The notes under the pieces are model-generated. The model saw only the letters and a program-made list of their open reading frames with translations, was not told the DNA's origin and made no database searches. From UHGV virus genome UHGV-0212646: a DNA stretch of 43,550 nucleotides; one strand, given 5' to 3'. Origin of the DNA: a virus. Positions 3,457 through 34,348 of the stretch are shown here, in pieces (positions within the stretch are counted from its first letter, which is position 1; the number at the start of each line of letters is the position of its first letter). The position numbers were made by a program, and so were the translations under genes.

Positions 3457-3692
3457 TAAATAGCGCAGCAGTAATGTATAAATGCGTCGTATGAATTGAA
3501 TGTCATCCTTATTTAATTTACTGCACATGAGATTTATTTCTTTTATGTATTCGTCCATATAGCACCCCTTTGAACATACGTTTGCTTTTGTTTGATTCAA
3601 TAATAGCACACAAGGAAATAAATATCAAGCAATTTTAGAACAAATGTTCTTTATTATATTGGCTTTGTAATAAAAGAGATGAGGGAATACAC

Positions 3693-4343
3693 ATGAGTAG
3701 CAAAATGAAAACTAAAATATTGTTTTTAATAATTTTTACATTTTTGGATATAGGTTTTCTTCCACGTTTTTCCAAATATAATACTGCTAATAAAATCACA
3801 GCAATTATTTCTTTTCTTATTACGCTTTGGCTTGTATTAGCTATAGTCAAAGAAAATAAGAAAAAGAGTCTTGAAGTTGCTCAACAGCAAGAACGTGTAC
3901 AGACATTGATTGCTAATATCCGATCTGGAGCAATTCCGAAGATAGAAAATTGTTCTCTGATCTTAAAAGATGGTGAGTTCGCCTGTAATGAAGTTCAGAC
4001 CTACATATCTGAAACCAAAAATAAAGTTGTTGGAAGTACAGGCTCTGGAGGCGGAGTTAGTGTCCGAGTTGCTAAGGGAGTCCGTGTCCATTCTAGTTCA
4101 GGAGGAAACAAAAAGGTTTACAGAGATGTTACAGAAAAATATTTCGGTAGCTTCATTATCACAAATCAGAGAATCGTATTCTTGAATAATCAAAAAGGAT
4201 TTGAGATTCCTTATATGAATCTGACCGGACTGTTTTCGTCGGGAAAAGATTTAATTGTACAATCAAAAAATAAATCTTATATAATTTTTGCAAATACTCC
4301 TACTGTATACGAAGAGTTGATTCGGGCAGTAGCAAAAAATTAA
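3693..4343 (+). CDS. AT-rich moron: membrane protein with two N-terminal TM helices and a C-terminal bPH (YdbS/YdbT)-like domain
   Basis: TM helices ILFLIIFTFLDIGFLP and ITAIISFLITLWLVLAIV. C-terminal beta-rich segment ...FIITNQRIVFLNNQKGFEIPYMNLTGLF...SYIIFANTP is typical of bacterial PH-like domains. Roughly 30% GC. Confidence 0.5.
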   Translation: MSSKMKTKILFLIIFTFLDIGFLPRFSKYNTANKITAIISFLITLWLVLAIVKENKKKSLEVAQQQERVQTLIANIRSGAIPKIENCSLILKDGEFACNEVQTYISETKNKVVGSTGSGGGVSVRVAKGVRVHSSSGGNKKVYRDVTEKYFGSFIITNQRIVFLNNQKGFEIPYMNLTGLFSSGKDLIVQSKNKSYIIFANTPTVYEELIRAVAKN

Positions 4344-4487
4344 ATAATAGAGAAAAACCAGCCCCTGCGCCAACAGGAACGGCTTTAAATTAAAGAAAGT
4401 AATCGGAAAAGTAATGTATTGAATCGCCTCTGGCGTTTTAATAAAGTAAACCAACGATTAGTGTTTTTACAGAATGGTGGTGACCTA

Positions 4488-4724
4488 TTGGAAATACAAT
4501 ATTCTAAACAAGCAATCAAATTTTTAAAGAAACAAGACCTGCCGACCAGAAAGCGTATCATAACTGCGATCAATGCACTTCCTGCCGGAGATGTAAAATC
4601 TTTGCAAGGACGCTCTGGATACCGCCTCCGGATTGGCGACTATAGAGTAATTTTCGATAAAGAAGGAAATATTCTCTATATTGAAAAAATTGATAACCGC
4701 GGACAAGTTTATAAAGGAGTGTGA
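4488..4724 (+). CDS. type II toxin, RelE/ParE family
   Basis: GGTGGTGA SD, then TTG at 4488. Product MEIQYSKQAIKFLKKQ...SGYRLRIGDYRVIFDKEGNILYIEKIDNRGQVY matches RelE/ParE core motifs. Confidence 0.8.
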   Translation: MEIQYSKQAIKFLKKQDLPTRKRIITAINALPAGDVKSLQGRSGYRLRIGDYRVIFDKEGNILYIEKIDNRGQVYKGV

Positions 4725-4729
4725 TTTAT

Positions 4730-4975
4730 ATGACTGCAATAAAAGAGCGTATTATAGGTGCTGTCTCCCTGATGAGTGATCAGGAGGCTGCTGTATTTTG
4801 GAAGTTAATCCAGAACCGCTATATTATCACTCCCAAGACCCAAGATGCCTGGGATAGTATTGAGGAAATCGAACCTGACGAATTTGATCTGGCTATGCTC
4901 AGAGAAATAGAAAATGATCCTGATTGCCACGAGTTTGTTTCCTCCAAAGATGTTATGGATGAGCTTGGTTTGTAG
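4730..4975 (+). CDS. putative cognate antitoxin (unclassified, acidic C-terminus), encoded after the toxin
   Basis: AAAGGAGTG SD, then ATG at 4730, 5 nt after the toxin stop. Acidic C-terminus EEIEPDEFDLAMLREIENDPD. Confidence 0.4.
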   Translation: MTAIKERIIGAVSLMSDQEAAVFWKLIQNRYIITPKTQDAWDSIEEIEPDEFDLAMLREIENDPDCHEFVSSKDVMDELGL

Positions 4976-4993
4976 TTGATTTTCAAAACAAAT

Positions 4994-5032
4994 AAAAACC
5001 GCCCGGTGTTACCAGCACCGAACGGCTTTCAC
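4994..5032 (+). terminator. imperfect hairpin after the TA operon
   Basis: aaaaaccgcccggtgttaccagcaccgaacggctttc. Confidence 0.3.
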
Positions 5033-5167
5033 ATAGATTCTCTTGCCGGATACTCCAGCCATGATAAATCCAGACCAAACATCTGAATTATATCATTTCT
5101 GGTACATCCTGGCAAGGGGTGTATTTTTTACACCCATTTTTCATACAATCCACAAGGAGATGATATA

Positions 5168-6646
5168 ATGCCGCCATTATCCACCAGTAATTCACAGACT
5201 TTGGAGATCGGCGCCGCCTACATCCGCGTCAGCACCGACGATCAGACAGAGCTTTCCCCGGATGCCCAGCTGCGTGTCATTCTTGATGCCGCCAAAGCGG
5301 ACGGGTTCGTGATCCCTAAAGAATATATCTTTGAAGAGAAGAAAGGCATATCCGGCCGGAAGGCTGACAACCGCCCGGAGTTCCAGCGTATGATCGCTAT
5401 TGCCAAGTCTCAGAAACCCGCTCCCTTCAAACGGCTGTACCTCTGGAAGTTTTCCCGATTCGCCCGGAATCAGGAGGAAAGCACCTTCTACAAGGGGATC
5501 TTACGAAAAAAGTGCGGAATCGAGATCAAAAGCATATCAGAGCCCATTATGGACGGAATGTTCGGCCGACTGATTGAAACGATTATCGAATGGTTTGACG
5601 AATACTATTCTTTTAACCTGTCCGGGGAGGTCATGCGCGGCATGACAGAAAAAGCCCTCCGGGAAGGCTATCAGACCTCCCCTTCTCTGGGATACAAGGC
5701 CGCCGGCGAGGGCAAACCATTTCTCATTGACGAGATGACTTACCCGATTGTGGAGTATATCTTCCGTACCTATCACGATGGCCGGGATATGACTGCCACT
5801 GCAAGGGCCGCCAACGCCATGGGCTACCGAACCCGCCACGGCAATCTCTTTGATCGTCGGGCAGTTTACCGCATTTTAACGAACCGTTTTTACAATGGAG
5901 AGGTTGTCTGGAACGGGATCACCTTTCAGGGATCGCATGAAACCCGCCCCGCCGTAACCTCCATTTACGAGAACGTCCAAAATCGGATAACATCTGAATA
6001 CCGCCCCCTCAAGCGCCGCGAGGCCTCTGCTAACGCGCATTGGCTGTCAGGGCTTTTAACCTGCAGCGTCTGTGGCAGCAGTCTGGGCTTTAACCGCTCC
6101 AACAATCAGAAAAAGCGTCCTGACTTCTTTCAATGCTGGAAGTACGCCAAGGGCGTCCACCCTGGTTCCTGCTGCGTATCTGCCCGGATTGCAGAGCAAA
6201 CCGTGCTGAGTTCGTTGGAAAATGCTATGGGGCAGAACTATCTTGAGTATGAATATATCCCGAAAACAGCTGTGGAAACACACGGAGAGGAGCTGGCTTT
6301 AAAAGAGGCTTTGGATCGGATCGCCATCAAAGAGCAGCGCATCCGGGAGGCATATGAAAATGAAATTGATACCCTGGAAGAATATAAGCAAAACAAAATC
6401 CGTCTGAATGTCGAACGGGAGCAGCTGACCGCCGCACTGGAACAACTTCGTCAGAAGATCCAGCAGTCCACATCCGCGCCGCCCAGTCAGGCCGAGGTCA
6501 TGGCCAAAATCTCCTGTGTGTATCAGGTGCTTTCTGATCAGGAAGTCGATAACGAAACCAAAGCCAATGCCCTCCGAGCCATCTGTAAACAGATCGTTTT
6601 TGACCGTGAAACCAGACGTTTTATCTTTTATTACTACACATCATAA
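5168..6646 (+). CDS. int: large serine recombinase (phage integrase type)
   Basis: Resolvase catalytic N-terminal domain (AAYIRVSTDDQ...), recombinase domain, Cys-rich zinc ribbon (CSVCGSS...CWKYAKGVHPGSC), and a C-terminal coiled coil. AAGGAGA SD. Confidence 0.9.
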   Translation: MPPLSTSNSQTLEIGAAYIRVSTDDQTELSPDAQLRVILDAAKADGFVIPKEYIFEEKKGISGRKADNRPEFQRMIAIAKSQKPAPFKRLYLWKFSRFARNQEESTFYKGILRKKCGIEIKSISEPIMDGMFGRLIETIIEWFDEYYSFNLSGEVMRGMTEKALREGYQTSPSLGYKAAGEGKPFLIDEMTYPIVEYIFRTYHDGRDMTATARAANAMGYRTRHGNLFDRRAVYRILTNRFYNGEVVWNGITFQGSHETRPAVTSIYENVQNRITSEYRPLKRREASANAHWLSGLLTCSVCGSSLGFNRSNNQKKRPDFFQCWKYAKGVHPGSCCVSARIAEQTVLSSLENAMGQNYLEYEYIPKTAVETHGEELALKEALDRIAIKEQRIREAYENEIDTLEEYKQNKIRLNVEREQLTAALEQLRQKIQQSTSAPPSQAEVMAKISCVYQVLSDQEVDNETKANALRAICKQIVFDRETRRFIFYYYTS

Positions 6647-6682
6647 GTTATTGCATTACGGGCCACCGGATAGCAATAACTT
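6645..6682. repeat. perfect 10-bp inverted repeat AAGTTATTGC-N18-GCAATAACTT abutting the int stop
   Basis: Seen directly in sequence. The AT-rich arms and 18-nt spacer are atypical for an intrinsic terminator, and the scale fits a serine-integrase att/binding site. Confidence 0.35.
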
Positions 6683-6728
6683 ATAGTGTTGTGAGTAAGT
6701 GGAGACAAAAAAAGGTTTTTATAGAATA

Positions 6729-6757
6729 TTGCATTTAGGAATTGCGTATGATATAAT
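6729..6757 (+). promoter_or_regulatory. promoter TTGCAT-N17-TGaTATAAT for sRNA-A
   Basis: Near-consensus -35, 17-nt spacer, extended -10. Confidence 0.6.
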
Positions 6758-6764
6758 GCCTGTA

Positions 6765-6840
6765 GGCAATAAAGGATATAGTTGTTCCATAGTGAGCGAC
6801 AACAAAAAACCCGGAGGTGTGCAAGACCTTCGGGTTTTTC
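6765..6840 (+). ncRNA. candidate antitoxin sRNA-A (RNA II-like) of a par/Fst-like type I TA locus
   Basis: Runs from its own promoter to the shared bidirectional terminator. Carries the direct-repeat segment ataaaggatata...ttccatagt, which is complementary to the toxin start region. Confidence 0.5.
6810..6839. terminator. bidirectional intrinsic terminator shared by sRNA-A and toxin-A mRNA
   Basis: cccggagg-tgtgcaaga-ccttcggg with T-runs on both strands. The stem covaries with copy B. Confidence 0.7.
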
Positions 6841-6891
6841 TATTCCTATTTTTCGGAGTGGGAAGGCTTAACCCCACAGGCTAGTTACCGA

Positions 6892-6978
6892 TTACTTATC
6901 GCCGTTTAACCATTTGATGATGTAGTGGCAAGCTACACCAGCCGCAACAGCGACGATAAAGGATATAATAAATTCCAT
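6892..6978 (-). CDS. 28-aa hydrophobic peptide, Fst/Ldr-like type I toxin candidate (copy A)
   Basis: GGGAGGTG SD, 6-nt spacer, ATG. Product MEFIISFIVAVAAGVACHYIIKWLNGDK: a TM helix followed by a charged KWLNGDK tail. The 5'UTR contains CGCCTCCCT, which can pair with the SD. Confidence 0.6.
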   Translation of the reverse strand: MEFIISFIVAVAAGVACHYIIKWLNGDK

Positions 6979-7212
6979 AGTAAGCACCTCCCTTCCTTAC
7001 CAGTATAGGAGGCGGTAACATCAGCATTATAGCACACTCATATCATCTCTGCTACTTCTTTTTCGACAATCTCCCCTATTTTTTACTTTCCCAGCCCCGG
7101 CCACAGCAGCGCCCCGTCCTGACTGGGCGTCAGTCTAACAGAATAAATCGACATCTAGATTCAAAGGATAACAATACATTCTTCCTTCTGTGGCGGAAGC
7201 TCCCACAGTACC

Positions 7213-7875
7213 TTAACCCGCCAGCATCTTCGTCGAGTTCTCCTGGATGAATCCCTTGATCTGGTCATATCCCCAACCGCAGCTTATAAGGCTACTCACC
7301 AGCATCTCCATGGATTCAATCTGTTTCAGTTCATCCGCTGTCACATATTCCCGAATACTTTCTTTCCTCTTCACCCCATACTGCTCCTGCAGTTCCTTCA
7401 TGGTCTTTCCGAAGATGGTCTTGTAGATAAGCTTGGTGTAATTGGGATACATGAATTTCTTATGGGGACTGTCAGTCACTTTCATTTTTATGGTATCGGT
7501 CAGGATATGGCGGACAATAATTCCCTTGTCCCTTTCAATCTGCCACTGTTGCCGTTCTGTATAGATTCTCTTGAGTTCTTTTTCCATAGCATTGAAAGCT
7601 TTGATATAGTCCAGTTTCCATCTTAAAGCTTTCTCGCCTGTAAATCCCATAGCAAGTAATGAAAATCCATCTCTGTCCATTTCATACATAGGATATTCTT
7701 TTCCACGGTTTTTGTATGTAGTCAGGGTGAAAAAACTGGCTGCCGAATTTTCGGCCGTGAGATTTCTAATAGCGTCCAATACATGCCTGTGTTCTTTCTC
7801 AAAATGTTCTGCCACTTTAAGGCTTGTGGTAATCAATCTTTCTTCATATCTTTTCCCGGTAATTTCTACTAACAT
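7213..7875 (-). CDS. phage regulatory protein Rha
   Basis: N-terminus TSLKVAEHFEKEHRHVLDAIRNL is the Rha family signature. GGAAGGA SD. Confidence 0.8.
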   Translation of the reverse strand: MLVEITGKRYEERLITTSLKVAEHFEKEHRHVLDAIRNLTAENSAASFFTLTTYKNRGKEYPMYEMDRDGFSLLAMGFTGEKALRWKLDYIKAFNAMEKELKRIYTERQQWQIERDKGIIVRHILTDTIKMKVTDSPHKKFMYPNYTKLIYKTIFGKTMKELQEQYGVKRKESIREYVTADELKQIESMEMLVSSLISCGWGYDQIKGFIQENSTKMLAG

Positions 7876-7971
7876 AAACTACATCCTTCCTATGCGTTTA
7901 TTTTTCGTACAATAAAAGCCCTGGGAAACATCCCAAGGCTGAACATTCCATATTCACTTGTTTGATCCGGT

Positions 7972-8763
7972 TTAAAACTCGCCCGGCCCCTGTACCCCGC
8001 TGGCGTCAGTTACATACAAGGCGCATTCCAACGGGTGGCCTGCCGCCGGCTCAAAGTAATACCATTTCCCATCGATCTGATGCCAGTCCGTTAATGCGTA
8101 GCCATCCTGGTTAAAATAATACTTGTGATGGTTAATCACCTGCCAGCAGGACTTATAATAGGTGTGGGGCGTGTCTGCGTACCACCATCCGTTACTGTCA
8201 TGGTGCCAGCCTAATACGTATTCTGATTGGCTGACAATCGACCAGTCCGGCAGCCCGTAGCCAAGAATTTTCCCATAAGACCGGCTGTAAGCCTTCCGGC
8301 ACACCCCGCCGCCGTTTTCAATCACACCGGATGCACCGGACGTATTGCCCTCAATGGTCTTGATCCGCGTTGCCGTCACCTCTGTAACGATCCCTGTATG
8401 ATAGGCTCTCTGGCCGTTGGTAAAGAAGATCACTGCCCCAGGCTCCGGCACCGCGGCCCACCGGCCTGCCTTTTTAAACTGGTTGACCCCTGTGGGGCAA
8501 TAATGGTACAGGCTGCCTCCCAGAAGTTTCTTAGCCTCCTCAAGCCCAAATGCCTGCACAAATACCTCTGATACGAACATGGCGCACCAGGGCTGGGCCT
8601 GCAGGTTCTGACCGGTATGTATCTTATAGTCCCTGGCAAAGCAGGTGAAATTGCCGCTGCCGGCATTGGCCGTAAAATCATCCAGCTGGGCGTTGCTTTT
8701 CTTTTCCAGATAGCCGTCCCAATGGGCGGTCTGATCAATGAGTTTCTTTACTGCGTTTTCCAT
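7972..8763 (-). CDS. endolysin: CHAP/NlpC-P60-type peptidase domain plus C-terminal cell-wall-binding (choline-binding-type) repeats
   Basis: ATG at 8763 follows a GGAGG SD. Catalytic Cys (PWCAMFVSE) and His (AYHTGIV). Repeats GWHHDSNGWWY..., KYYFNQDGYALTDWHQIDGKWYYF. Confidence 0.8.
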   Translation of the reverse strand: MENAVKKLIDQTAHWDGYLEKKSNAQLDDFTANAGSGNFTCFARDYKIHTGQNLQAQPWCAMFVSEVFVQAFGLEEAKKLLGGSLYHYCPTGVNQFKKAGRWAAVPEPGAVIFFTNGQRAYHTGIVTEVTATRIKTIEGNTSGASGVIENGGGVCRKAYSRSYGKILGYGLPDWSIVSQSEYVLGWHHDSNGWWYADTPHTYYKSCWQVINHHKYYFNQDGYALTDWHQIDGKWYYFEPAAGHPLECALYVTDASGVQGPGEF

Positions 8764-8826
8764 ATGTCTTTGCCTCCAAATAAAAAAGCCCGGTACAAAA
8801 CCGGACAAAAATCATTTTCAGGTATC

Positions 8827-8855
8827 TTGCTTTTAAAATCTGCATATGCTATAAT
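8827..8855 (+). promoter_or_regulatory. promoter TTGCTT-N17-TGcTATAAT for sRNA-B
   Basis: Same architecture as the copy A promoter. Confidence 0.6.
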
Positions 8856-8861
8856 GCCAGT

Positions 8862-8937
8862 AGGCTAAACGATAAAAGTTGTCCATTTCAGACAGCAAAA
8901 ATGAAAACCCCAAGGACCGCAATTCCTTGGGGTTTTC
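8862..8937 (+). ncRNA. candidate antitoxin sRNA-B
   Basis: Carries the direct repeat aaacgataaaagttgtccatttcagaca, whose near copy (rc) spans the SD/start of toxin-B. Ends at the shared terminator. Confidence 0.5.
8908..8936. terminator. bidirectional terminator, copy B
   Basis: ccccaagg-accgcaatt-ccttgggg plus T-run. Two compensatory base-pair changes relative to copy A. Confidence 0.7.
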
Positions 8938-8980
8938 TATTCCGTTTTTATGGTGGCTTAGACCATAGGCTGGTTACCGA

Positions 8981-9067
8981 CTATTTGTCGCCGTCCAACC
9001 ATTTGTTGATGAGGTGGCTAACCACACCAGCCGCAACGGCAACAATAAACGATAAAAGTGTATCCAA
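8981..9067 (-). CDS. 28-aa hydrophobic peptide, Fst/Ldr-like type I toxin candidate (copy B)
   Basis: GGGAGGTG SD, 6-nt spacer, TTG. Product MDTLLSFIVAVAAGVVSHLINKWLDGDK. Confidence 0.55.
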   Translation of the reverse strand: MDTLLSFIVAVAAGVVSHLINKWLDGDK

Positions 9068-9183
9068 TTCAGACACCTCCCTTCTGTCACCAGATTCGGA
9101 GGCGGTAACGTTAGCATTATAGCACAGCTGCAGTTATGCCGCAATCAAAATATAGACCTCAGGAATCCCCTGGGGCCTGTCTG

Positions 9184-9200
9184 CGTTGCGACGTCGCACG
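9184..9200. repeat. GTTGCGACGTCGCAC palindromic motif (copy 1 of 2; second copy at 27306-27322)
   Basis: Identical 15-17-nt palindrome seen in two late-region intergenic gaps. Confidence 0.4.
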
Positions 9201-9203
9201 ACT

Positions 9204-9428
9204 CTACTCCTGACTGTCATCTACACCGTTGTTATTACGATCAGATGGGCCACCTACGCCGCTCTGATGCTTGTCTGGATGCGGTACATCACATGGTGCA
9301 TCATGCAGATATGGGGTCGGCTCCTTAGGCTGCAGATCTGGCCCTGCGTTTACATAGCCTCCCATTCCAGGGATTTTATCCTGATGTTTTCCTGTTAATT
9401 TTGCCATAAATTTTGTCCTCTCTTTCAT
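9204..9428 (-). CDS. hypothetical Gly/Pro/Asp-rich hydrophilic protein (67-74 aa), doubtful
   Basis: Weak SD. Sits between the holin and toxin-B. The overlapping + ORF 9186..9398 is Trp-rich and unlikely to be real. Confidence 0.25.
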   Translation of the reverse strand: MKERTKFMAKLTGKHQDKIPGMGGYVNAGPDLQPKEPTPYLHDAPCDVPHPDKHQSGVGGPSDRNNNGVDDSQE

Positions 9429-9499: not shown

Positions 9500-9679
9500 C
9501 TATTTCTGTCTGCTTTTCTCTGTTTGAACGCCAAAGTAGAACCCCACAATCATCGTGAAGATTGTAAGGTATTCCTGCCCGGAAATTTCCCCAGTGCAGG
9601 TCAGACCCACGAATCCCGCAGTCAGCGCCAGAGTCATGATCGACTTAACATCGATCAGCTTAGCCAGTTTCTCTTTCAT
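9500..9679 (-). CDS. holin (59 aa, two TM helices)
   Basis: GGAGGTG SD, 6-nt spacer, ATG at 9679. Product MKEKLAKLIDVKSIMTLALTAGFVGLTCTGEISGQEYLTIFTMIVGFYFGVQTEKSRQK. Below the ORF-track length cutoff. Confidence 0.7.
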   Translation of the reverse strand: MKEKLAKLIDVKSIMTLALTAGFVGLTCTGEISGQEYLTIFTMIVGFYFGVQTEKSRQK

Positions 9680-34078: not shown

Positions 34079-34114
34079 GGAACGTCTGGGTGGAGATCCC
34101 TAAACCAGGCTAAC

Positions 34115-34186
34115 GGATCCTACAGGAATCGAACCTGTGACACGGTGGTTAACAGCCACCTGCTCTGCCAGCTGAGCTAAGGATCC
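34115..34186 (-). tRNA. tRNA-Asn (anticodon GTT), phage-encoded, no encoded CCA
   Basis: Cloverleaf hand-folded: acceptor GGATCCT/AGGATCC, D-stem GCTC/GAGC, anticodon stem GGTGG/CCACC with loop CTGTTAA, T-loop TTCGATT. Confidence 0.8.
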
Positions 34187-34348
34187 ATAAGGGGAGCGTC
34201 CAGCCCTGATCCGGAACCAGAGCCAGACGATCCGGCCGCGGGGCTGTGACACCCGGCGGCCGACTGGGGCTAAGTGCAAGCCGTCGGCTGTATGCCTTTG
34301 GCTTCGGATTTTATTATAAAACGACTTTTCCGACATAAACGACCTTTT

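Follow-up and report, generated by a model that had tools for sequence, protein, structure and literature searches.

The virus genome UHGV-0212646, analyzed here as one stretch of 43,550 nucleotides (nt) to which we refer as the window, carries a prophage read on the minus strand. To the right of a large serine recombinase gene lie, all on the minus strand, the genes for a Rha-family regulator and an endolysin, small genes of the lysis region, and the tail and head genes. Two homologous intervals, here called modules A and B, bracket the Rha and endolysin genes, and each of them is very probably a complete par/Fst-like type I toxin–antitoxin (TA) module, both in its identity and in its regulatory architecture, as judged from the sequence. 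Each copy holds two convergent extended -10 promoters, a plus-strand small RNA (sRNA) of ~80 nt, a bidirectional terminator common to both transcripts, and a minus-strand gene for a peptide of 28 amino acids (aa). The positions of these elements and of the genes around them are collected in Table 1.

Anatomy of the two modules

In both copies, the predicted extended -10 elements (TGnTATAAT) of the two promoters face each other, and this convergent arrangement is kept in the 44 modules of the family that were aligned (see below). The sRNA promoters, whose TTG..TGnTATAAT arrangement is kept in all aligned modules, would start transcription at ~6763–6765 in module A and ~8861–8863 in module B. 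A generic sigma-70 scan misses the promoter of sRNA-A because its -35 element is weak. The promoters within each module are also related to each other by inverted repeats: I2 joins the toxin A promoter to the sRNA-A promoter, and I7 makes the toxin B promoter 100% complementary with the -10 of sRNA-B. Between the sRNA promoter and the terminator hairpin, each copy has ~45 nt without conserved structure. The hairpin itself is rich in G+C, with T runs after it in either direction, and a simple terminator scan made a both-strand call for copy B only.

Table 1. Features of modules A and B and neighboring genes in the window (ORF, open reading frame; SD, Shine–Dalgarno sequence; DRa and DRb, direct repeats; TM, transmembrane)
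Feature	Position	Strand	Details
Large serine recombinase	5168–6646	+	
sRNA-A promoter	6729–6757	+	-35 TTGCAT 6729–6734, 17-nt spacer, extended -10 TGaTATAAT 6749–6757
sRNA-A -10 hexamer	6752–6757	+	
sRNA-A	6764–6845	+	RNA II-like antitoxin, ~80 nt; unstructured 5' recognition domain, then terminator hairpin
sRNA-A DRa; DRb	6769–6780; 6786–6798	+	
Terminator A	6805–6839		bidirectional, intrinsic, common to sRNA-A and toxin mRNA-A; inverted repeat I4, 14-nt arms, 93% complementary
Toxin mRNA-A	6800–7021	-	RNA I-like, ~220 nt
Toxin A ORF	6892–6978	-	28 aa and stop, ATG 6978: MEFIISFIVAVAAGVACHYIIKWLNGDK
mRNA-A repeat copies	6956–6967; 6974–6986	-	across the start codon
mRNA-A 5' upstream helix	7019–7013 with 6890–6884	-	5' GUUACCG with CGGUAAC just past the stop codon
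mRNA-A 5' stem-loop	7015–7009 with 6991–6985	-	anti-SD CGCCUCC with SD GGAGGUG
Toxin A promoter	7026–7055	-	extended -10 TGCTATAAT (plus strand 7026–7034), weak -35
Endolysin remnant	7083–7154	-	last 23 codons of a choline-binding-type endolysin C-terminus, ending LTPSQDGALLWPGLGK and stop (tblastx)
Rha-family regulator	7213–7875	-	Pfam Phage_pRha, E 3e-29
Endolysin	7972–8763	-	CHAP and choline-binding repeats (Pfam)
sRNA-B promoter	8827–8855	+	-35 TTGCTT 8827–8832, 17-nt spacer, extended -10 TGcTATAAT 8847–8855
sRNA-B -10 hexamer	8850–8855	+	
sRNA-B	8862–8945	+	DRa 8866–8879, DRb 8880–8894, then terminator hairpin
Terminator B	8903–8937		bidirectional; inverted repeat I3, 100% complementary
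Toxin mRNA-B	8898–9110	-	~213 nt
Toxin B ORF	8981–9067	-	28 aa and stop, TTG start 9067: MDTLLSFIVAVAAGVVSHLINKWLDGDK
mRNA-B repeat copies	9046–9059; 9061–9075	-	
mRNA-B 5' upstream helix	9109–9103 with 8979–8973	-	5' GUUACCG with CGGUAAC
mRNA-B 5' stem-loop	9105–9099 with 9080–9074	-	anti-SD CGCCUCC with SD GGAGGUG
Toxin B promoter	9116–9145	-	extended -10 TGCTATAAT (plus strand 9116–9124)
Holin-like two-TM protein	9500–9679		

Aligned pairwise, the intervals 6745–7042 and 8843–9135 were 73.9% identical over 307 columns (79.9% ungapped), while a shuffled-sequence control gave 47.5 ± 1.4%. The similarity spans the sRNA promoter, the sRNA body, the terminator, the 3' untranslated region (UTR), the peptide ORF, the SD, the 5' UTR, and the toxin promoter, in agreement with the original prediction, made from the letters of the window, of roughly 75% identity over promoter, sRNA, terminator, peptide gene, and toxin promoter. 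Also as predicted, the two peptides are equal in length in spite of many synonymous differences (the ORFs differ by 10 synonymous and nine nonsynonymous codons), and both starts lie 6 nt past GGAGGTG. The length of 28 aa holds for toxin B provided that TTG 9067 is its start; the start given by the ORF finder, GTG 9076, overlaps the SD and is therefore unlikely to be used. A search of the window with a profile of the family (nhmmer) returned exactly two copies, 6726–7052 and 8824–9132, both on the minus strand, and no third.

Each module also contains two direct repeats, overlooked in the original prediction, one set being located in the 5' part of the sRNA and the other over the start codon and first ten codons of the toxin gene. 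In both modules the first repeat is identical to its counterpart in the toxin gene and the second approximately so. The repeat sequences of A and B are unlike each other.

The family and the structure of its RNAs

Relatives were sought by scanning for the back-translated peptide tail KWL[DN]GDK followed by a stop codon. This yielded 68 loci in IMG/VR and at least 120 in GTDB genomes, and ~190 related loci were collected in all (designated below by L numbers where they have to be told apart). Nearly all of the tail matches end one ORF of 28–29 codons preceded by a GGAGG or GGGGG SD; about five seem to be unrelated, and ~10 are disrupted copies. The host genomes are almost all from Lachnospiraceae (Blautia, Enterocloster, Dorea, Mediterraneibacter, Coprococcus, and Roseburia; L076 is from C. 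asparagiforme), with a few from Oscillospiraceae, and the remaining relatives are on gut phage contigs.

Among these loci, 94 distinct 28-aa peptides had a canonical SD and start. The logo of a stricter set (n = 89) reads M-[ED]-x-[ILF]-x-S-F-[IL]-[VI]-[AST]-V-x-A-G-V-x-C-H-[YL]-I-x-KWLDGDK. The helix is hydrophobic, K-W-L is invariant, and the tail is acidic. The residues K22-W23-L24 followed by D/N-G-D-K, present in 89 of the 89 peptides, were imposed by the search pattern; the KWL tail is also seen outside it, in an allele of L003 (KWLDSGDDDN) and in the streptococcal SpF66 (KWLDGKE), both discussed below. G14 is present in 76 of the 89, and both window peptides carry AxxxG. Outside the tail, the entropy at codon position 2 is 0.49, compared with 1.0 at positions 1 and 3, as would be expected for a hydrophobic peptide under selection.

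Some of the matches depart from this scheme. At L024, L064, and three further loci, an ACG stands at the position of the toxin start codon, with normal SD spacing, so that either a non-canonical start is used or the toxins are silenced. In L013, L044, L056, L104, and L157, the toxin gene is disrupted by a 5' truncation or an internal stop, the sRNA side being kept in L013 and L044; these loci may be orphan antitoxins or decaying modules.

To examine the RNAs, 44 non-identical toxin RNAs were aligned and their common structure was obtained with RNAalifold, the SD helix being added by hand. RNAalifold recovered the 5'–3' helix, two helices within the ORF, and the terminator. Standard pairs occupied 95.9% of the cells, against 37%–51% when the partners were slid by 1–3 columns, and double-sided changes were found in 21 of the 41 pairs, against 4–11 in the slid controls; none of 500 shuffles attained the observed values. 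Four of the seven pairs of the 5' upstream helix are compensatory (e.g., A-U to G-C in seven sequences), as are nine of the 12 terminator pairs in the toxin-RNA alignment and 10 of the 13 in the sRNA alignment. In the latter, the terminator is the only conserved structure and the 5' domain varies freely.

The original prediction had taken the terminators of A and B to differ at two strictly compensatory base pairs, and had seen in this the proof of selection on RNA structure and peptide. One of the two changes, at pair 4 (G-C to C-G), is indeed compensatory, but that at pair 5 (G.U to A-U) is one-sided, and a further double-sided change at the top of the stem (U-A to A-U) had been overlooked. 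The conclusion itself was correct, although its proof comes from the family and not from the window pair: two sequences alone do not prove a structure, whereas the family-wide counts do, and they argue for selection on the RNA structure. Independent comparative evidence, together with the homology to a validated Fst locus (see below), thus supports the core of the prediction, namely two homologous type I TA modules with selection acting on RNA structure and peptide alike.

The pairing between sRNA and toxin mRNA showed a marked specificity. The predicted duplexes of the sRNAs with their cognate toxin start regions have energies of -42.5 kcal/mol for sRNA-A and -42.7 kcal/mol for sRNA-B, compared with -22.1 kcal/mol for sRNA-A on toxin B and -20.7 kcal/mol for sRNA-B on toxin A. 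When all 44 modules were compared with each other, the cognate duplexes averaged -42.3 kcal/mol and the non-cognate ones -25.0 ± 6.0 kcal/mol. In all 44 cases, the cognate partner either ranked first or was outranked by at most three modules, which are apparently near-identical copies. Because the repeat sequences of A and B differ, each sRNA should control its own toxin alone, and we infer that the two modules are orthogonal. A precedent is RNA II of plasmid pAD1, which is reported to give no protection against the RNA I of EF0409 owing to the difference in their repeats (PMC7472228).

Two other pairings were considered and discarded. DRb of sRNA-B matches 14 of 15 nt within the Rha ORF (7674–7688, plus strand), but this candidate trans target was rejected as a probable chance match: the duplex energy was reached by 7% of shuffles, sRNA-A performs equally, and the match does not co-vary, since L003 retains the Rha sequence though its B allele differs. 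In general, complementarity of the sRNAs to the Rha or endolysin mRNAs was no better than chance. A possible third pairing site between the modules' own RNAs, joining the sRNA 5' UAGGC to a GCCUA of the mRNA past the upstream helix, was dropped because inspection of the alignments, without a formal count, showed no co-variation.

Kinship with par/Fst loci

Weaver (2020) lists what is conserved in par-like loci (PMC7472228): the promoters converge, the terminator is bidirectional, DRa and DRb cover the initiation region, the SD is hidden in a 5' stem-loop, a 5' upstream helix is formed, and in the peptide a tryptophan stands between TM helix and charged tail. The anatomy of the window modules agrees with this list item by item. 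The closest comparison is with the par locus of Enterococcus faecalis pAD1 (RNA I/Fst and RNA II), in which convergent promoters likewise run into a common bidirectional terminator, and two direct repeats are transcribed both ways over the toxin start codon. There, too, the SD is hidden in a 5' stem-loop, an upstream helix joins the 5' end to sequence beyond the ORF, and the ~30-aa product combines a TM helix and a charged tail with an L that is preceded by an aromatic or aliphatic residue. Orthogonality of paralogues through divergent repeats is another trait that the modules would share with par-like loci. They differ from par of pAD1 in belonging to Lachnospiraceae prophages rather than plasmids.

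Homology was also detected at the RNA level. The Rfam family RF02442 (SpF66_sRNA) matched mRNA-B over its full length (8893–9109, minus strand; 40.9 bits, E 1.4e-7), against a gathering score of 42, and mRNA-A weakly (6794–7019, minus strand; 19.7 bits), whereas the toxin RNAs of L070, L053, and L045 scored above the gathering score, with 52.2, 48.4, and 47.2 bits, respectively. SpF66 is the sRNA F66 of Streptococcus pneumoniae TIGR4; it is encoded in tandem with F67, and the two are flanked by SP2168 and SP2169 (PMC3395615). This interval is the fcsR-adcA intergenic region, in which two tandem Fst homologues have been described, antisense sRNA and toxicity being shown for one of them (Fozo et al. 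2010; PMC2887945), and F67 now carries the annotation of an Fst-family toxin (PMC12323649). SpF66 resembles the toxin mRNAs studied here in sequence and structure, and the Rfam consensus encodes MSLILELVLTIIADVIAGIILYFVCKWLDGKE, a peptide of the same family that ends in AGIILYFVCKWLDGKE. RF02442, filed as a Streptococcus sRNA and not as a toxin mRNA, is thus really the toxin mRNA of this Fst-like family. In S. pneumoniae, too, the genes form a tandem pair, and such duplication is known from type I loci (PMC2887945), but their locus is chromosomal and lies between housekeeping genes.

Two further systems are less close. The SprA1/SprA1AS pair of Staphylococcus aureus encodes PepA1, an Fst-family toxin that is likewise on a mobile element and whose sequence aligns in register with the family; its antitoxin, however, acts in trans through a non-overlapping region, and PepA1 has PxxxGC and a basic tail. 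The type I toxins of Clostridioides difficile are unrelated, being ~50 aa long and encoded in another gene arrangement. What the prophage-borne and CRISPR-adjacent type I systems of that species have in common with the modules is their occurrence in gut clostridial prophages and the specificity of their cognate antitoxins (PMC6563280, PMC5961336).

Several observations weigh against the assignment, most of them concerning the peptide. The proline of PxxxG, which is required for Fst to be toxic, gives way to A, S, or T in the family: of the 89 peptides, 50 have A at position 10, 22 have S, and 16 have T, and none has proline. The window peptides had no significant match in Pfam or NCBIfam, only three of 30 family members matched the Pfam Fst_toxin family (PF13955), all below threshold (best E 0.025), and a profile search of the PDB with the family did not retrieve Fst or PepA1. 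At the RNA level, the SD/anti-SD helix is paired in ~98% of cells family-wide yet has no double-sided covariation, and the terminator loop of copy B, AUUGCGG, lacks the YUNR U-turn motif found in par of pAD1, although this motif is not present in all par homologues (PMC7472228). The loop of copy A contains CUUG.

Direct comparison of the profiles was more favorable. The hhalign alignment of the family with PepA1 (P 5.8e-4) is gapless and in register, with a match of G14 and of W23-L24, and that with Fst (P 8.7e-3) is likewise gapless and in register, so that the peptide-level signal of kinship with Fst, as far as such alignments suggest it, is weak but consistent. On the grounds of their architecture and of homology at the RNA level, the modules were accordingly filed as par/Fst-like. 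Their peptides, which have a short fixed tail (KWLDGDK) and are not recognized by PF13955, make up a divergent subfamily that current protein profiles miss. Modules of this kind are well known, but there is essentially no annotation for their large subfamily in the prophages of gut Lachnospiraceae. The string KWLDGDK did not occur in the literature searched, and a blastn search of 6700–9140 against an annotated phage collection returned only matches to the Rha gene and a single match to the ORF of copy A. The window offers a clean case, annotated in full, of an Fst-type subfamily that is large and has almost no annotation, and that belongs to the dominant Firmicutes of the human gut and their prophages.

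The single match to copy A is in PQ006100.1 (bajarodino virus 68), a 7-kb viral record from a rodent sample, of which positions 2010–2120 match window positions 6898–7009 at 77%. In the record, a DNA binding protein is annotated there. Probably, this record holds an unannotated member of the family, or else the contig is of bacterial or phage origin.

Arrangement around the lysis genes and possible role

The position of the copies on either side of the lysis gene and Rha had been regarded as unusual, and it had been proposed that they stabilize or regulate the segment between them or serve as handles for homologous recombination. The check that had been suggested, a search for other cargo in related phages, showed that the content between the copies does vary. 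The locus L096 (Enterocloster alcoholdehydrogenati C5-48) is 98% identical to window positions 7962–9208 and 6660–7173 and encodes both peptides unchanged, including the one identical to toxin B, but has ~90 nt in place of Rha, so that its two modules surround the endolysin alone (window 7174–7961 vs. L096 6285–6375). Because a terminator (7917–7940, minus strand) stands between the endolysin and Rha genes, the latter seems to be a separately acquired unit. Loci with two copies are common: two full modules were present in 15 of the 190 loci listed, always in direct orientation and 14 to 2816 nt apart. Some pairs are in tandem with no cargo, while an XhlA-like gene is enclosed in L020 and L044, the endolysin in L096, and a CitMHS transporter gene in L087. 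In the last case, the two modules (3539–6861) flank the transporter gene beside a LuxR/MalT-type regulator on the chromosome of an uncultured Firmicutes.

As to how the two copies came to lie where they do, a recent duplication in situ was rejected, since each copy is nearer to modules of other phages than the 74% identity between A and B: copy A shares 90%–93% identity with the modules of L012, L031, L084, and L179, and the modules of L002, L136, and L184 share 78%–82% with copy B. The two are old paralogues. Immediately upstream of module A lies a remnant that matches the 3' ends of the endolysin genes preceding A-like modules in L031 and L136. The endolysins found before A-like modules consist of Amidase_2 and choline-binding repeats, and in L031, L012, and L084, an intact gene of this amidase type stands where the window has the remnant, which indicates that a former endolysin was replaced or deleted. 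L002 and L136, for their part, have a tRNA and an endolysin together with a single, B-like module. The best reading of the window is therefore that mosaic recombination brought together the ends of two lysis modules, [module B – endolysin (– Rha)] and [endolysin remnant – module A – recombinase]. The bracketing of the endolysin is not special.

Evidence of exchange between phages came from L003, which is 94% identical to window positions 6979–9208 and keeps both Rha and endolysin. Its module B (L003 1846–2148 vs. window 8868–9131) is only 47%–73% identical in the core, while the promoters and flanks are 93%–100% identical; the sRNA-B promoter is 97%–100% identical up to 8867, beyond which the cassette diverges. 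The L003 allele encodes MTEFVVSLLTTILGGVACHYIIKWLDSGDDDN and has its own matching repeats. The transcribed core with both RNAs has thus been exchanged as a promoter-bounded cassette, and recombination between phages at the conserved promoters is real at least in L003. Together with the co-variation of sRNA and toxin start, this core swap makes the family a good natural data set on how the specificity of RNA antitoxins evolves.

These comparisons bear on the proposed handles. The copies are direct repeats around a block of genes, Rha is present or absent between them in close relatives, and the L003 exchange is bounded by conserved promoters, all of which would be in keeping with such a function. 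Within one genome, however, two copies that are 74%–80% identical, with a longest exact run of ~15 nt as judged by eye from the alignment, are a poor substrate, below the usual need of RecA-type recombination, and a crossover of A with B would delete the endolysin. The boundaries of the Rha indel (7174 and 7961) fall outside the modules, and among the relatives compared, no recombination junctions inside modules were seen to delimit differing cargo. Neither did a device stabilizing or regulating the lysis–Rha segment find specific support, the L096 pair lacking Rha, other pairs enclosing unrelated cargo or, at a spacing of 14 nt, nothing, and the sRNAs having only chance complementarity to the mRNAs of the segment. 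Both forms of the proposal are most improbable.

By analogy with par of pAD1, the modules most likely work as follows. A weak minus-strand extended -10 promoter would produce an mRNA of ~215 nt for the 28-aa membrane peptide, and a better convergent promoter on the plus strand an sRNA of ~80 nt, both transcripts stopping at the one bidirectional terminator. The sRNA, in excess, would bind first through the complementary terminator loops and next through the repeats, thereby blocking translation and storing a pool of inactive toxin mRNA. Upon loss of the DNA or a halt in sRNA synthesis, the unstable sRNA would decay and the peptide would be made, which would then damage the membrane or cell division. 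No new mechanism is revealed by the modules. A role in the addiction or stabilization of the prophage would follow from this scheme, and on the strength of the analogy, we are about evenly divided between accepting and doubting it; against it stands the chromosomal location of some family members, such as the pair around the transporter gene in L087. An exclusion function may possibly exist besides addiction.

If exclusion were instead the main function, the modules would act in abortive infection or superinfection exclusion, directed against phages or other competitors. An invader that halts host transcription would cause the labile sRNA to decay, and the toxin would kill the cell before the invader finishes its cycle; shut-off of transcription is a known trigger of RNA-antitoxin systems. 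The recognition repeats are highly diverse, each of the 44 modules having its own specificity, the transcribed core has been swapped between otherwise near-identical phages (L003), and several orthogonal copies per element are frequent, so that the diversity of the swappable cassettes could reflect an arms race. Yet diverse repeats are also expected merely from co-resident paralogues avoiding cross-talk, and such a defense is compatible with addiction rather than exclusive of it. As the main function, we consider it rather unlikely.

The neighborhood of the modules suggested another possibility, namely that the peptides are holin- or pinholin-like accessories of lysis, silenced by the sRNA in the lysogen and expressed by late read-through to time or complete lysis. 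Module B sits exactly between the holin region and the endolysin, with a Phage_holin_4_1 gene directly upstream of it in L096, and the A-like modules of L031, L012, and L084 directly follow endolysin genes. When non-redundant nearest neighbors were counted, peptidoglycan-hydrolase domains, including those of endolysins, were the most recurrent on both sides (~15%), followed by integrases, the rest being host genes, and the toxin was co-stranded with the lysis genes in all lysis-adjacent modules examined. Profile searches gave faint Pfam holin matches, in four of 30 and in one of 30 members, with E values of 0.02 or worse. Many modules, however, lie beside host genes or integrases with no lysis gene near, the homologous pneumococcal locus has no lysis linkage, and the window already encodes a holin-like protein, with two TM segments where the peptide has one in its 28 aa. 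Each module, moreover, has its own promoters and antisense RNA and a strong terminator, and is therefore an autonomous unit. Next to their lysin gene, at one end of the prophage, Firmicutes prophages are known to collect accessory genes, and the modules fit this usual spot, the end with lysis cassette and integrase, which accounts for the adjacency without a functional link. A lysis accessory is thus an improbable reading.

A related reading, in which the modules are promoter-bounded, exchangeable specificity cassettes functionally tied to the lysis genes that they flank, seems no more probable than a lysis accessory. In one version, the peptide would be a silent second membrane-damaging effector freed by late read-through; in the other, the modules would form an addiction device by which that end of the prophage that bears the endolysin is specifically kept from being deleted or replaced. 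If this were true, two orthogonal cassettes around the endolysin would have been selected and would not be an accident of recombination.

Two minor observations concern the surroundings of the modules. Directly before the SD and start of the endolysin gene lies a terminator-like hairpin (8788–8806, minus strand), GTCCGGTTTTGTACCGGGC followed by TTTTTTATTT, which is conserved in L002 and L003. Because this hairpin and the terminator of module B both precede the endolysin gene on the strand that encodes it, and there is no room for a promoter between them, expression of the endolysin may need read-through or antitermination. Finally, tRNA genes were found within ~1 kb of the modules in L002, L004, L005, and L006, a proximity that is consistent with modules at prophage ends beside tRNA attachment sites, and the window itself has a tRNA-Asn (GTT) gene inside the prophage (34113–34187, minus strand).

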